From IMG/VR virus record IMGVR_UViG_3300045988_180666: a stretch of 31,872 nucleotides of DNA. One strand, 5' to 3'. The stretch comes from a virus (taxonomy: Duplodnaviria; Heunggongvirae; Uroviricota; Caudoviricetes). Under the pieces are notes generated by a model, which was not told where the DNA came from, ran no database searches, and was given only the letters and a program-made list of their open reading frames with translations. Shown here in pieces: positions 14,248-19,064 of the stretch; the stretch's first letter is position 1, and the number at the start of each line of letters is the position of its first letter. The position numbers and the translations under genes were made by a program.

Positions 14248-14684
14248 TTTATATGTCCTTTAATGTTAGACTCGATAGCCGAGTGTTTGAAAAGTTTTTT
14301 ATAATTGTCGAATGAATATTTGAGTTTGCTCACCGTGCGCTTGTTTGTGCTCACTAGGTTGGCTCCATGTCTGCCAGAGATGCCTTCCTTGGTATTGAAC
14401 TTCAGAGAATTTCTTTTGGAGTCAACCCAAAGCCTGATGGCATCGCCTTGTATCTTGTCACCCACATTGCCATGGACGTTGAGATCTTCTCGTATTTTCT
14501 TGTCCTCTTCGTTGAGCTCAAGAGCTTCGGTGATTTCTACGGAACTATTTCGGTCTAGTTCGTATAATGTCATCTTTTTGCCCGTGATAGGTTCCTCTTT
14601 GAGTCCCTTCCACTCAGCCCTTCTGGCAATGACATCAGCTTTTTTGCCCTCTATGATTTCACCTTCTTTGATATATATAGCCAT
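14244..14684 (-). CDS. Hypothetical protein, gene 2 of lower-GC cassette
   Basis: ORF track, 146 aa. Lys-rich. 4 nt overlap with gene 3. Confidence 0.55.
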   Translation of the reverse strand: MAIYIKEGEIIEGKKADVIARRAEWKGLKEEPITGKKMTLYELDRNSSVEITEALELNEEDKKIREDLNVHGNVGDKIQGDAIRLWVDSKRNSLKFNTKEGISGRHGANLVSTNKRTVSKLKYSFDNYKKLFKHSAIESNIKGHIK

Positions 14685-15112
14685 TATTGGATACTTTTTT
14701 GCATTGATTTTTCACTGAAAGAGAATACCTCAGCCATATCATCAGGCGAGGTGATGCTCATGAGCGATGGGCTGACCTCAAGAGCCACCTCAATGTCTTC
14801 AATGGAAGCATCTTTATCTTGTTTGATGATGTACTTATCCTCATGCTCTTCAATCTCTTTATCAAACTCTTCTTCGGTAATATTGCCGTCAAGCATTTCG
14901 CAATATAGTTTGAAGTAGTTGCGCTCACGTGTGCGGTTGTTAACGGCACGAGTCATCAACTCCTTGAGTCTGTCGGCAGTACTGATGTTGAAAAAGTTAG
15001 CCTTATTGGTAACACCAGCGAATGCAACCTTGCCAGTACCTTTGTCTTGTATAGCCACAACAGGGCTGCCATCAGTTTGGTATGTTGTATATATAGTCGT
15101 TGTATTGCTCAT
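14684..15112 (-). CDS. Hypothetical protein, gene 1 of lower-GC cassette
   Basis: ORF track, 142 aa. ATG at 15112 is about 29 nt downstream of TGCAAAGATA motif (15141-15150). Acidic C-terminal half. Confidence 0.55.
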   Translation of the reverse strand: MSNTTTIYTTYQTDGSPVVAIQDKGTGKVAFAGVTNKANFFNISTADRLKELMTRAVNNRTRERNYFKLYCEMLDGNITEEEFDKEIEEHEDKYIIKQDKDASIEDIEVALEVSPSLMSITSPDDMAEVFSFSEKSMQKSIQ

Positions 15113-15140
15113 AATTCACATCCTGTTTATATTAACACGG

Positions 15141-15150
15141 TGCAAAGATA
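15141..15150 (-). promoter_or_regulatory. Promoter -7 element for the lower-GC three-gene cassette
   Basis: TGCAAAGATA about 29 nt from ATG at 15112; lies downstream of the radC terminator. Confidence 0.55.
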
Positions 15151-15266
15151 CGGATATTTTTTGTAAATCGCAAATTTAATGATAAATTTAACAACAAAAA
15201 TTGCAATAAAGATTGGAAAATGGTATATAAAAAATGCTCGACCGCTTTTTGGCTCTTGCCAGACGC

Positions 15267-15291: not shown

Positions 15292-15320
15292 AAAATGAGG
15301 GGGAAGGTTTTAGCCTTCCC
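15283..15320 (-). terminator. Rho-independent terminator after radC
   Basis: Stem GGGGAAGG (15299-15306) / CCTTCCCC (15313-15320), loop TTTTAG; minus strand continues TCATTTTCCAAAAATT. Confidence 0.6.
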
Positions 15321-15323
15321 CTT

Positions 15324-15340: not shown

Positions 15341-16024
15341 TTATAGCTTTCCTTTGTCGTGGTAGCTGTAGAAGCCATCCTCAGCCAAGATGATATGGTC
15401 CATCAAGAAAAGTCTCATCACCTCGCACGCCTTGGCTATCTTCTGCGTGAGCATATCGTCCGCCTTGCTCGGCTGCGTGCTGTTCGATGGGTGGTTGTGT
15501 GCCACGGCGATGATGGTTGCATTGTTGAGCACGGCTTCTTTCATTATCAGTCGAACGTCCACCGCTGTCTCGGTGATGCCTCCCTCGCTGAGCTTGGTGC
15601 ACTTTATCAGCCTAAAGTTTTGGTTCATCAGCACTACCCAAAAGCCCTCTGTCTCATTGCAGCCTATCATTGGGCGAAGATAGTTGTAGAGTGCCAGGCT
15701 GCTGCCTAGGTCGGTGTTTCTCGCTACCTTTTCCATTTGGTAGCGTCTGCCTAGCTCGATGGCTGCCTGTAGGGCTATCGCCTTGCAGTCTCCAATTCCT
15801 GGTACCACTTCCAGGTCTTCTATTCTCGCCTTGCCGATGTTGCGAAGCGAGTTGCCCATGATGTTATAAATCTGTCGTGCCTGCTCTTGGCTGTCCTTGG
15901 TACCTGCCCCTCTGTTGATTACCAAAGAAATCAAGTCAACGTTGGTAAGGGTGTCGAAACCTTGGTTATAGGCTCTGTACTGCGGTCTCTCCTCCATACA
16001 AAGATTGTTATAATTTTGTCTCAT
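15341..16024 (-). CDS. radC: RadC-like JAB/MPN-domain protein (UPF0758 family)
   Basis: 227 aa. N-terminal helix-hairpin-helix-like VVPGIGDCKAIALQAAIELG. C-terminal AVAHNHPSNSTQPSKADD matches the JAMM motif HxHx7Sx2D typical of RadC family. Confidence 0.8.
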   Translation of the reverse strand: MRQNYNNLCMEERPQYRAYNQGFDTLTNVDLISLVINRGAGTKDSQEQARQIYNIMGNSLRNIGKARIEDLEVVPGIGDCKAIALQAAIELGRRYQMEKVARNTDLGSSLALYNYLRPMIGCNETEGFWVVLMNQNFRLIKCTKLSEGGITETAVDVRLIMKEAVLNNATIIAVAHNHPSNSTQPSKADDMLTQKIAKACEVMRLFLMDHIILAEDGFYSYHDKGKL

Positions 16025-16039
16025 ATCTTTTGTTATTTG

Positions 16040-16564
16040 TTAGTTATACATTCTCTTTGTTCTCGCTAGGAACATCGCTCCCATCACTTGTGCGCCACAT
16101 TCGGCTAGCTCGTTGGCGAACTCTCGGGCGGTCGCTCCGCTCGTCACCACGTCGTCGAAGATGATGACTTTCTTTCCGCTGAAGTACTCTCTATCGAGTG
16201 CCACTCTGTAGTCGAAGCTCTCACACACTCTGTCTGTGCTGAAGTGCTTGGCTGTGCGCTCTCCATAGATGGAAATGTGCTCGTTTCCGTTCTGTACCTT
16301 TGCGCCTTGGCTCACCTTTTGGGCGAAGCGAGAAAAGCGCTTGGTGTACTTCTTTGAGTTGGCTGCTGGAGCGCAAACCATCACGAAGTCGCTGGCTTTG
16401 TCGCCATAGGTGTTGACGAAAGAGCTGACCACCATATCGGCAGCTGCGTCTGTCGCCCACTGCTTTCCATCCTTGAAGGCAAAGATGAAGTTTCTCACTT
16501 GCTCTGCTTGTGCTGAGCGGTCGAAACGCTTGGAGCTGTACTCGTAATAATTGAAAGTTTTCAT
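16040..16564 (-). CDS. Phosphoribosyltransferase (PRTase) domain protein, ComF-like
   Basis: 174 aa. KKVIIFDDVVTSGATAREFANELAECGA matches the PRPP-binding loop of type I PRTases. No N-terminal zinc-ribbon. 15 nt upstream of radC. Confidence 0.7.
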   Translation of the reverse strand: MKTFNYYEYSSKRFDRSAQAEQVRNFIFAFKDGKQWATDAAADMVVSSFVNTYGDKASDFVMVCAPAANSKKYTKRFSRFAQKVSQGAKVQNGNEHISIYGERTAKHFSTDRVCESFDYRVALDREYFSGKKVIIFDDVVTSGATAREFANELAECGAQVMGAMFLARTKRMYN

Positions 16565-17360
16565 ACGCTTAAAATTTTTATTCTAGCCAGAGGGAGGAAG
16601 GAGCTTTTTTATTTGAACTCGTCTTTGCCTGCCCGTCTGAGAGTTTTTTTTATTCTGTCCGTCGGTCGTTTTTGTCGCTTTTTACGGTGCGATGCAGACG
16701 AGCGGAGAAGAGGTATGAAAGCCAAGGAATTTTGCAAAAAGTTTATGGAAAACCGTCATCTCTGATTGCGGAAGGCTGCCGAAAAGTTTTTGGAAAATAG
16801 ATTTATCGGTACTTGGTGCATGCCGTCCGCCGTACCTTTGCACCCGAAAAAGAGATAATGACCGATGGATAACCGATAAAGGGAAAAGCTCTCGGACAGG
16901 AAAAGCGGGCAAAGAAAAGGCTCTGCCTTACCTTGGTGGTTAAGCCTTAGCGACGTTTGAGCGCCATCACGGTCACCACCGCTTGAAAATTCGCAAATTT
17001 TAACCCTAGCGTATGAAATGAAAGATGGAAAATTTGCGTCATCAAAAACACCATGTTTTTCAGACTTCAGGAGGAAAAACATACCTTGGAGCGATGAAAT
17101 CGCAGCATTTGGCATGCTTCGACCCCGAGGTTGAAGATGCCGAATGTGTCGTTTTGCGACAGGTTTTCCACACCCACGGATTGGAAAACCCCGATTTTAT
17201 CGTGGTTTTAGGGATTCAAAGGGAAAATAATTCCCCTTTGTCGGCGATAGCACCCCCCACCGCCCTACGCCCGAGCGCGCCTTCCGCCCCCTTGGAAAAG
17301 ACGGAATATGTAAAAGACCGTTAACGTTTTTGTAGGAATGTAAAAAGCCAAAAGGCACGA

Positions 17361-17394
17361 AAAAAGGGAACACGCTTCGCAGCGCACTCCCCTT
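17361..17394 (-). terminator. Putative terminator after terL
   Basis: Minus strand GGGAGTGCGC-TGCGAA-GCGTGTTCCC (10 bp stem incl. 3 G-U pairs) followed by TTTTTTCG. Confidence 0.45.
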
Positions 17395-17462
17395 ATCGGC
17401 GGTCAAGCAAGAATGCCAGCCACCTAACTTATATAAGAATCGTACTATCTAAAGAAATCAAA

Positions 17463-19064
17463 CTATAGCATGGAACCCGTGGCGATGTAGCCATCAGCCT
17501 GAGGGTATTTCTCCATGCCAATCATGAGCGTGTCGTAGGCATCGGAGCCATCGGTGCGAGCCTCCAACTTATCCTCCTCGGTCTCAGCCAGCTTCTCGCC
17601 TCGCTTATCCTTCTTGCCGTTGTAGACCCCGGCCAGGCGGATGGAGATGAGCAGGTCTTCGTTGTTCTCGCTGTTGATCATCGAGCGATGCTCAGCCTTG
17701 CCGAGGAACATGCGGTTGAGCAGAAGCATCTTTTCGAGATGTCCCATCGGGTTGCCCAGATAGACCTCGTTGACATACCAGCCATGGTCGGTGAGGTAGT
17801 CGGTGATGAAGGTATGGAAGTCATCGTTCATCAGGGCGTAGTTGTTGCCCACGAAGGTGGAGTCGTAGTAGAAGTTGACCTCTTTGCACCGATGGTACTC
17901 ATAGTACTGCATGAACTTGTCGAGCAGGGCTGGCAGCTTCTCCTCATACTTCACGAAGATGCTCTTGAGGCAGCGTGCCTCGCCCCGCAGGTTGTCTTGT
18001 CCGACGGCTATCCAGTTGATGAGGGCGTTGGCATCGAAGGCGATGCAGAGCGGACGGTCGGGGTCAACGTCGGCATCCATTCTGGAATCTACATGCTTGA
18101 GCTTGTCGATGTCGTAGCCCAAGCCATCGAGGTAGGCGAGGTTGGGCGCCGTGTATAGGTTGGCATCCCTGAGGTTGGAGTAGAAGCCATCGAGCGAGAT
18201 GGAAGGTCGCTTGCACATGATGGAGGTCTGGAAGGTGAGGGCAGGGAGGTCTCGCTTCATCTGCTTGATGAACTCCATGCCGAGCACCTCGATGTTATAG
18301 ACCGATGAGTACTCTTTATAGAAGAGTGCCTTGGAGCGCAGTTGCGCCAGGAGCTGACCAATCTCTCGGAGTCGGCGCTGGGCATAGCCTGAGACATGGC
18401 CCGAGGTCTTGATGCGGTTGCGTATGTCATACTCCTCTACCACGAGCGAGGCGATGGCGTCGATGAGCAGCTGGTCGCAGTCTTTCTTGTAGTTGAGGAA
18501 CCAGGAGCCCTTCTTGGTCACGGGCATATCAGAGGTGATGAGCATGCCATGGTGGTAGTAGTGCTGGCCGAAGAGGTTGACGTTGCCTCGATTGGCAGGG
18601 AAGGTCTCGTCTTTGAGCTGTTCGAAGTTGATGAACTTCGCCTCGTCGATGTCGAGGTAGTCGAGCGAGAGGGAGTTGGAGGTACCCTTGCGGTCTTGCG
18701 AGATGATGGTACCGATGGAGCCGTTATAGAAAGAGATGGTGTTCTCCCAGTTGCTGGGCGGTATGACCGGGTCGGGCCATCCCAGTTTTTTGGGAGGCTT
18801 GACCCCGATGAGATAATGCTTGCCCCGGTGGAAGCCCCATCGCTCCCAGTGCTGAAGCATCGACGGTATGGTGTTGGTGAGGCATCGCTTGGTGTTGGCG
18901 GATACGAAGCCGCCGTTGCTGCCAGGCATGCGCTGCATGTTGCGCAGGTTGAAGGTGGCGTGGAGAATGCTCTTGCCGATGCCTCGACCGCCCACGACCA
19001 CGTTGTCGCGGGCGGAGATGAGGTTGACCTCCATCTGGGCTGGGTTGAGATATTGATCTATCAT
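17463..19064 (-). CDS. terL: Terminase large subunit
   Basis: 533 aa. Walker A-like VVVGGRGIGKS near N-terminus, Walker B-like LDYLDIDEA. Size and position beside a small upstream gene with ATGA overlap fit a phage TerL. Confidence 0.75.
   Translation of the reverse strand: MIDQYLNPAQMEVNLISARDNVVVGGRGIGKSILHATFNLRNMQRMPGSNGGFVSANTKRCLTNTIPSMLQHWERWGFHRGKHYLIGVKPPKKLGWPDPVIPPSNWENTISFYNGSIGTIISQDRKGTSNSLSLDYLDIDEAKFINFEQLKDETFPANRGNVNLFGQHYYHHGMLITSDMPVTKKGSWFLNYKKDCDQLLIDAIASLVVEEYDIRNRIKTSGHVSGYAQRRLREIGQLLAQLRSKALFYKEYSSVYNIEVLGMEFIKQMKRDLPALTFQTSIMCKRPSISLDGFYSNLRDANLYTAPNLAYLDGLGYDIDKLKHVDSRMDADVDPDRPLCIAFDANALINWIAVGQDNLRGEARCLKSIFVKYEEKLPALLDKFMQYYEYHRCKEVNFYYDSTFVGNNYALMNDDFHTFITDYLTDHGWYVNEVYLGNPMGHLEKMLLLNRMFLGKAEHRSMINSENNEDLLISIRLAGVYNGKKDKRGEKLAETEEDKLEARTDGSDAYDTLMIGMEKYPQADGYIATGSML

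Follow-up and report, generated by a model that had tools for sequence, protein, structure and literature searches.

A conserved PRTase–RadC gene pair carried as accessory cargo by gut Segatella/Prevotella phages

Several described systems couple a PRTase to a DNA-associated partner. In ShosTA (also Shosta or Rst_DprA-PPRT, a type IV toxin–antitoxin), toxicity of ShosT requires the DD motif of the PRPP site, and the partner ShosA binds ssDNA and RecA, not ShosT (PMC11961720, PMC12961424). A DprA+PRTase system in the P2 prophage hotspot beside cos protects against T7 and lambda (bioRxiv 10.1101/2021.01.21.427644). A conserved neighbourhood of PRTase and YpsA genes was noted by Brzozowski et al. 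2019 (PMC6459960), and the competence protein ComFC has ssDNA and PRPP as ligands and DprA as an interaction partner (PMC9005727). Few bacterial and phage proteins without a known activity are as widespread as RadC; a 2025 review describes the function of its JAB domain as unresolved and its substrate as unknown (PMC11981726). We found no published pairing of a PRTase with RadC: Iyer et al. 2017 handle both domains, but separately.

The phage genome fragment analyzed here (the window, 31,872 nucleotides in full) carries such a pair on its minus strand, between a terL-like gene and a terminator-like hairpin:

17463..19064, minus strand: terL-like gene, 533 aa, with P-loop GGRGIGKS and Walker B LDIDEAK
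16741..17462, minus strand: remainder of the spacer between the terL-like and PRTase genes (898 nt in total), with a terminator-like hairpin and no convincing ORF
16927-16908, minus strand: terminator-like hairpin in the spacer
16565..16740, minus strand: conserved non-coding leader upstream of the PRTase gene, a candidate promoter or regulatory region
16040..16564, minus strand: PRTase gene, 174 aa, stand-alone, assigned to a ComFC/ShosT-like mobile-element clade
16025..16039, minus strand: gap of 15 nt from PRTase stop to RadC start, an operon-like arrangement
15341..16024, minus strand: radC gene, 227 aa, full length, UPF0758 N-terminal domain (PF20582) plus JAB domain
15300..15321, minus strand: GC-rich terminator-like hairpin closing the cassette, 20 nt past the RadC stop, with a weak T-run

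The pair lies inside a packaging/head gene block, on the same strand as this morphogenesis region. The terL-like gene is identified by a weak PHROG match (phrog_2, E 1.1e-4) and its visible Walker A and B motifs; a PDB sequence search with its product returned no matches. The flanking genes have almost no matches in PHROGs, PADLOC or Pfam, and those downstream of the cassette match DUF6941 and, below threshold, DUF7408 in Pfam and nothing in PHROGs or PADLOC. The label 'lysis-like' that the initial annotation gave to these downstream genes finds no support in these matches. Megablast of the cassette region against GenBank phages gave no match. No HAD gene was seen adjoining the pair, and tblastn searches of the window for DprA and YpsA homologues (E<=1) yielded chance-level matches only.

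The initial annotation described the PRTase as stand-alone, with a PRPP-binding loop and no ComF zinc ribbon, and the protein has exactly this make-up. The loop VIIFDDVVTSGATA occupies residues 133-146, and the only cysteines (C64, C114 and C156) are scattered and form no CxxC pair, hence there is no zinc ribbon. All 174 residues make up a single PRTase domain and nothing else (PF00156, E 4.5e-7). Its PRPP-site residues are all kept, and K31, R76, H107, D137, D138, T141 and G143 are invariant in the family. In NCBIfam it comes closest to ComF TIGR00201, with 31.5 bits against a cutoff of 233.55 and an alignment that starts only at model position 43. Among the PADLOC models, ShosT matches residues 9-171 with E 1.6e-9 and PsyrT matches with E 9e-9, and PRTase_III-A gives a weak partial match (E 2.4e-4). 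The closest solved fold is that of ComFC, and likeness to the folds of salvage enzymes is lower. PDB sequence and profile searches align about 40 residues, the PRPP loop only, and are therefore unable to rank ShosT against salvage enzymes; crystallized ShosT itself (E 1.5e-4, PRPP loop only) is no nearer in sequence than ordinary PRTases. No curated salvage model exceeds 25 bits, where the cutoffs are 100-300, and all of them align only to residues of about 110-170; the N-terminal family motifs Y9xP11 and F30-K31-x-G33 are absent from salvage enzymes. The identification as a housekeeping salvage PRTase, which the initial annotation had named as the outcome that would count against it, thus failed. 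The protein belongs to a mobile-element PRTase family within the ShosT/PsyrT/ComFC-like group, not to the housekeeping salvage enzymes.

The second gene encodes a canonical RadC. ORF coordinates, Pfam and TIGR00608 (152.9 bits, cutoff 133.85) agree with the original assignment of a RadC-family JAB protein starting 15 nt downstream of the PRTase; the score against the NF000642 equivalog model, 175.5, falls just below the cutoff of 180. Pfam delimits a UPF0758 N-terminal domain (PF20582, E 7e-12), which we take to be a helix-hairpin-helix, and a JAB domain (PF04002, E 1.2e-35). The JAMM motif is intact, as had been claimed (E126...H176-N-H178...S186..D189), and the only solved relative is PDB 2qlc (E 1e-14). 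In its full-length architecture and JAMM motif the protein resembles the RadC/UPF0758 family at large, including E. coli YicR and the YeeS, YkfG and YfjY proteins of cryptic prophages, and differs from them in being tied to a PRTase in one operon. Phages and conjugative elements often carry RadC-like genes (see also PMC5512222).

We searched for related loci with a 12-sequence PRTase alignment. RadC lies directly 3' of the PRTase in 102 fetched loci, which include all fetched PRTases with 36% identity or more to that of the window and represent 74 unique PRTases and 73 unique RadCs. The pair is kept down to 36% identity in the PRTase and 42% in RadC, mostly with gaps of 8-42 nt between the genes. 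The catalytic residues are invariant throughout these 74 PRTases and 73 RadCs, including JAMM positions E126, H176, H178, S186 and D189, and dN/dS values of 0.13 for the PRTase and 0.12 for RadC indicate purifying selection on both. That the catalytic DD, T and G and the JAMM motif are so strictly kept argues that both proteins would be enzymatically active. In a sample anchored on terL instead (68 loci), 39 loci have the pair, six the PRTase only, three RadC only and 20 neither; adjacency of PRTase and RadC is far from chance (Fisher p = 3e-9, for loci that are phylogenetically non-independent). The initial annotation had also granted that a pair not conserved together would speak against it; the pair proved strongly conserved, and mobile as well. 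Solo PRTases occur at no fewer than 12 viral loci in related phages, some about 7 kb from terL, and solo RadCs, which are JAB-only, at three loci in related phages. The presence of solo PRTases and solo RadCs in the same slot argues against a strictly obligate toxin/antitoxin couple. We also considered the PRTase as a core phage function that always accompanies terL, and rejected this, as the gene is absent within 3.5 kb of terL in 20 of the 68 terL-anchored loci.

The non-coding surroundings of the pair bear on its transcription. The core block of the leader, at about 16600-16700, reads GCAnCGTAAAAAGCGA..CGACCG..GAAT..A8CTCTC, and the leader retains 68-76% nucleotide identity (blastn) at loci where the PRTases themselves are only 47-52% identical. 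Loci with the conserved leader include phages with a different terL family, which indicates that the leader travels with the cassette. Rfam finds nothing in the 898-nt spacer or leader, whether with gathering thresholds or with a limit of E<=10, and they contain no tRNA, consensus RNA fold or covariation. The terL–PRTase spacers of relatives are likewise long, about 0.6-1.5 kb. The initial annotation supposed that the pair is co-transcribed with the terminase operon; this is doubtful given the 898-nt spacer, terminator-like hairpin and conserved leader that intervene. Its accompanying statement that no canonical promoter lies directly upstream stands, insofar as no Bacteroidetes -7 box was found on the coding strand upstream of the PRTase. 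The terminator it assigned to the pair is borne out in part: a GC-rich hairpin with a stem of 8-11 bp and six G-C pairs does follow the RadC stop, but the T-run is weak.

Leader, PRTase, RadC and terminator form a mobile accessory unit in a 'moron' slot downstream of terL in temperate Prevotellaceae phages. The terL-like gene serves as the genomic anchor of this variable slot and stands upstream of the cassette in most loci. The same cassette is found behind terL types that share just about 28% and about 55% identity with that of the window, and a 100%-identical cassette accompanies a 92%-identical terL. What the slot contains varies among related phages: HicA, a HicB-like gene (so labeled by inspection), M78+DUF4411, a lone RadC, a lone PRTase or nothing. 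Two isolate genomes, those of S. salivae DSM 15606 and S. maculosa DSM 19339, carry integrated relatives. All contexts in which the cassette was found are (pro)phages, with none in chromosomal defence islands. The PRTase–RadC pair is cargo of gut Segatella/Prevotella phages, and in an abundant, poorly annotated Segatella copri phage family its slot beside terL is a hotspot for conflict genes.

Members of the PRTase family, which counts roughly 1000 representatives, elsewhere adjoin DprA in ShosTA/PsyrTA-type arrangements, adjoin YpsA-SLOG or stand alone, which bears out the initial remark that such PRTases pair with DNA-processing proteins. The partners were identified by Pfam as DprA (PF02481) and YpsA (PF06908). 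The PADLOC ShosT model is matched similarly by solo, YpsA-partnered and DprA-partnered relatives, and an HMM of the solo family aligns along the entire length of DprA-partnered PRTases (E 8e-51 to 7e-37). Segatella copri DSM 18205 has PRTase, DprA and HAD together. YpsA lies immediately downstream of the PRTase in L006, L007 and L110 by PF06908, and was identified as the partner by tblastn in L009, L010, L111 and L171-L184. YpsA-partnered homologues on Bacteroidales conjugative plasmids adjoin SSB, an orphan N6 methylase, LPD28 and DUF2958, and these surroundings are of the establishment or anti-restriction type; on pMMCAT plasmids the two genes are annotated as 'phosphoribosyltransferase' and 'SLOG family protein', and some plasmid homologues are annotated as 'ribose-phosphate pyrophosphokinase'. 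A second RadC-partnered PRTase, L008, is 52% identical to its YpsA-partnered sister L007 and 30% identical to the PRTase of the window. In a rough neighbor-joining tree without support values, rooted on one RecQ-helicase–PRTase protein, L008 nests within the YpsA-partnered clade, so that RadC and YpsA partners were exchanged at least twice. The longer proteins L132-L169 (608-690 aa) were considered as PurF-like and rejected: Pfam and their neighbours show RecQ-helicase–PRTase followed by DprA, a PsyrTA-like order. About 37 RecQ-helicase–PRTase loci are found in Bacteroidota by the same peptide pattern, and the make-up is confirmed for one, L139 (DEAD + Helicase_C + RecQ_Zn + PRT). PsyrT-type PRTase domains reach only 30-45 bits against the HMM of the window family.

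Compared with the described systems, the locus shares with ShosTA the two-gene layout of a PRTase effector with a DNA-associated partner, the acidic pair of the PRPP site (D331/D332 in ShosT), membership of DprA-partnered PRTases in the same HMM family, and a position in a prophage hotspot beside packaging genes, for which the P2 cos hotspot is a precedent. It differs in the partner, RadC with its JAB metallohydrolase and UPF0758 N-terminal domains in place of DprA-like ShosA, and in the HAD-type pyrophosphatase, which is fused in E. coli ShosT, encoded by a separate gene in S. copri, fused to DprA in L130 and present here neither as a domain of the PRTase nor as a gene beside it. Resemblance to crystallized E. 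coli ShosT is likewise limited to the PRPP loop. PsyrTA/RqlHI also has a related PRTase domain coupled to a DNA-processing partner; its PRTase carries an N-terminal RecQ-like SF2 helicase that the PRTase of the window lacks, and its partner is DprA-like instead of RadC. The PRTase–YpsA pairs provide the closest PRTase relatives outside of the RadC-partnered clade (30-36% identity) and have the same gene order, short spacing and carriage on mobile elements (phages and Bacteroidales plasmids), but their partner is a SLOG Rossmannoid and not a JAB/JAMM domain. ComFC has the same PRT fold with three PRPP-binding loops, the conserved Arg after strand 2 common to ComFC-like PRTases (Iyer et al. 2017, PMC5512222) and a functional link with a DprA-type partner, whereas its N-terminal four-Cys zinc finger and the ComFA/competence context (comFA, comEC) are missing from this phage-borne accessory gene. 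For the retron-type PRTase effectors, which are encoded next to a retron reverse transcriptase and its msr/msd ncRNA, the comparison gives the weak partial PRTase_III-A match, no Rfam ncRNA family in the window and no RT domain in the subset of ORFs scanned.

Our tentative reading is that the pair is a ShosTA-like PRTase module with RadC in the partner position, serving in toxin–antitoxin, abortive infection or exclusion—a reading that the comparative analysis makes possible, somewhat short of probable. Among modules of this kind, ShosTA and PsyrTA are the characterized ones, both type IV toxin–antitoxin or abortive-infection systems. The PRTase would bind PRPP and transfer or consume its phosphoribosyl group, and purine or DNA metabolism may be disturbed as a result; such an effect has been reported for ShosT. 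The N-terminal domain of RadC has been described as DNA-binding. RadC, as a JAMM metallohydrolase, would act on the DNA or nucleotide side and offset or complete the PRTase reaction, filling the role of the ssDNA-binding, DprA-like ShosA with no need to bind the PRTase. Lysogen or phage could benefit through abortion or exclusion of competing phages, and the pair may perhaps act as an addiction module. Against the ShosTA-like reading, prototype ShosT carries a HAD domain and has a DprA partner, both missing here. Also against it are the loop-only resemblance to crystallized ShosT, the split into solo PRTases and solo RadCs, the establishment-type surroundings of the YpsA pairs on plasmids and the finding of the cassette in (pro)phages only. 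A bolder version, which we consider quite unlikely, is that PRTase+partner modules are 'writer–eraser' systems like DarT–DarG. The PRTase would then attach a PRPP-derived phosphoribosyl to a nucleotide or an ssDNA base, and removal or processing of the adduct would fall to partners that can replace one another, DprA-like SLOG, YpsA-SLOG and RadC, as hydrolases directed at DNA or nucleotides. If true, the long-sought activity of RadC would be metal-dependent hydrolysis of phosphoribosylated DNA or nucleotides, and the neutralization of ShosT by ShosA without binding would be explained.

A somewhat unlikely alternative holds that the pair serves the phage at DNA entry, as an establishment or counter-defence module and not as a toxin–antitoxin. 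Here the PRTase would make, sense or destroy a nucleotide-type molecule or shield the incoming DNA, and RadC would process nucleic acid or nucleotides; made late, packaged and injected, or else made early, the proteins would blunt host immunity or rival elements. Iyer et al. 2017 (PMC5512222) described MuF head-protein fusions of this PRTase group among injected polyvalent phage proteins, as well as solo versions in phages and conjugative elements, and the pMMCAT-type PRTase+SLOG pairs beside SSB, the orphan N6 methylase, LPD28 and DUF2958 point the same way. So do the same-strand position in the packaging/head block without a Bacteroidetes -7 box found upstream, the solo PRTase and RadC versions, and the restriction of the cassette to (pro)phages. 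However, neither protein of the pair has a MuF fusion or a targeting signal, the cassette has its own leader and terminator like morons expressed independently of the late operon, the alternative cargo of the slot is toxin–antitoxin-like (HicA, the HicB-like gene, M78+DUF4411), and the nearest characterized relatives, ShosT and PsyrT/RqlH, are host-killing defence toxins (PMC11961720, PMC4670107). The initial annotation left the choice between a toxin–antitoxin-like and an anti-defence pair, and that hedge is appropriate, as the evidence assembled here does not separate the two. A non-enzymatic or regulatory role in ssDNA handling, similar to ComFC–DprA and aiding phage recombination, replication or packaging, is highly unlikely. 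In such a pair the PRTase fold would bind ssDNA with PRPP or nucleotides as regulatory ligand, and RadC would trim or process the DNA. The gene radC belongs to the pneumococcal competence regulon, the cassette adjoins terL, and the ssDNA, PRPP and DprA interactions of ComFC (PMC9005727) fit as well; the accessory nature of the cassette (absent from 20 of 68 related terL loci, with variable slot content), its movement between phages with unrelated terminases, the lack of the ComFC zinc finger and the strictly conserved catalytic DD, T, G and JAMM residues all speak against it. Most improbable, and already disfavoured, is an auxiliary nucleotide-salvage enzyme (APRT-, HGPRT- or OPRT-like) with RadC as an unrelated neighbour. 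The PF00156 match, weak APRT and OPRT model matches confined to the PRPP loop, and the pyrophosphokinase annotations of plasmid homologues can be cited for it; it is opposed by the low scores of the curated models, the restriction of PDB matches to the loop, the fold nearer to ComFC, the distinctive N-terminal motifs and the strict linkage to RadC, YpsA or DprA, which is unexpected for a salvage gene.

Under the ShosTA-like reading, the ShosTA/PsyrTA family would extend to a third partner class and to Prevotellaceae gut phages. Next to PRTases of one family, RadC takes the operon position that elsewhere belongs to DprA-like ShosA and YpsA-SLOG, a position that was swapped repeatedly. Its function can therefore be tested in a concrete setting, where the expected target of RadC is whatever is made or damaged by the ShosT-like PRTase.

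Further features lie at the edges of the cassette:

15143..15150, minus strand: Bacteroidetes-type -7 box TATCTTTG, about 30 nt upstream of the gene at 15112..14684
15139..15153, no strand assigned: left arm GGTGCAAAGATACGG of a 15-nt inverted repeat, overlapping the downstream promoter box
16830..16844, no strand assigned: right arm of the repeat, CCGTACCTTTGCACC on the plus strand, containing the plus-strand box TACCTTTG

The inverted repeat brackets the cassette, and its two perfect copies in the window compare with 0.03 expected. We considered it as a general marker of cassette ends and rejected this, since both arms are found only in relatives with PRTases at least 88% identical. The -7 box at 15143..15150 marks the start of a separate transcription unit; the window has 37 copies of the Bacteroidetes -7 motif where 12 would be expected.

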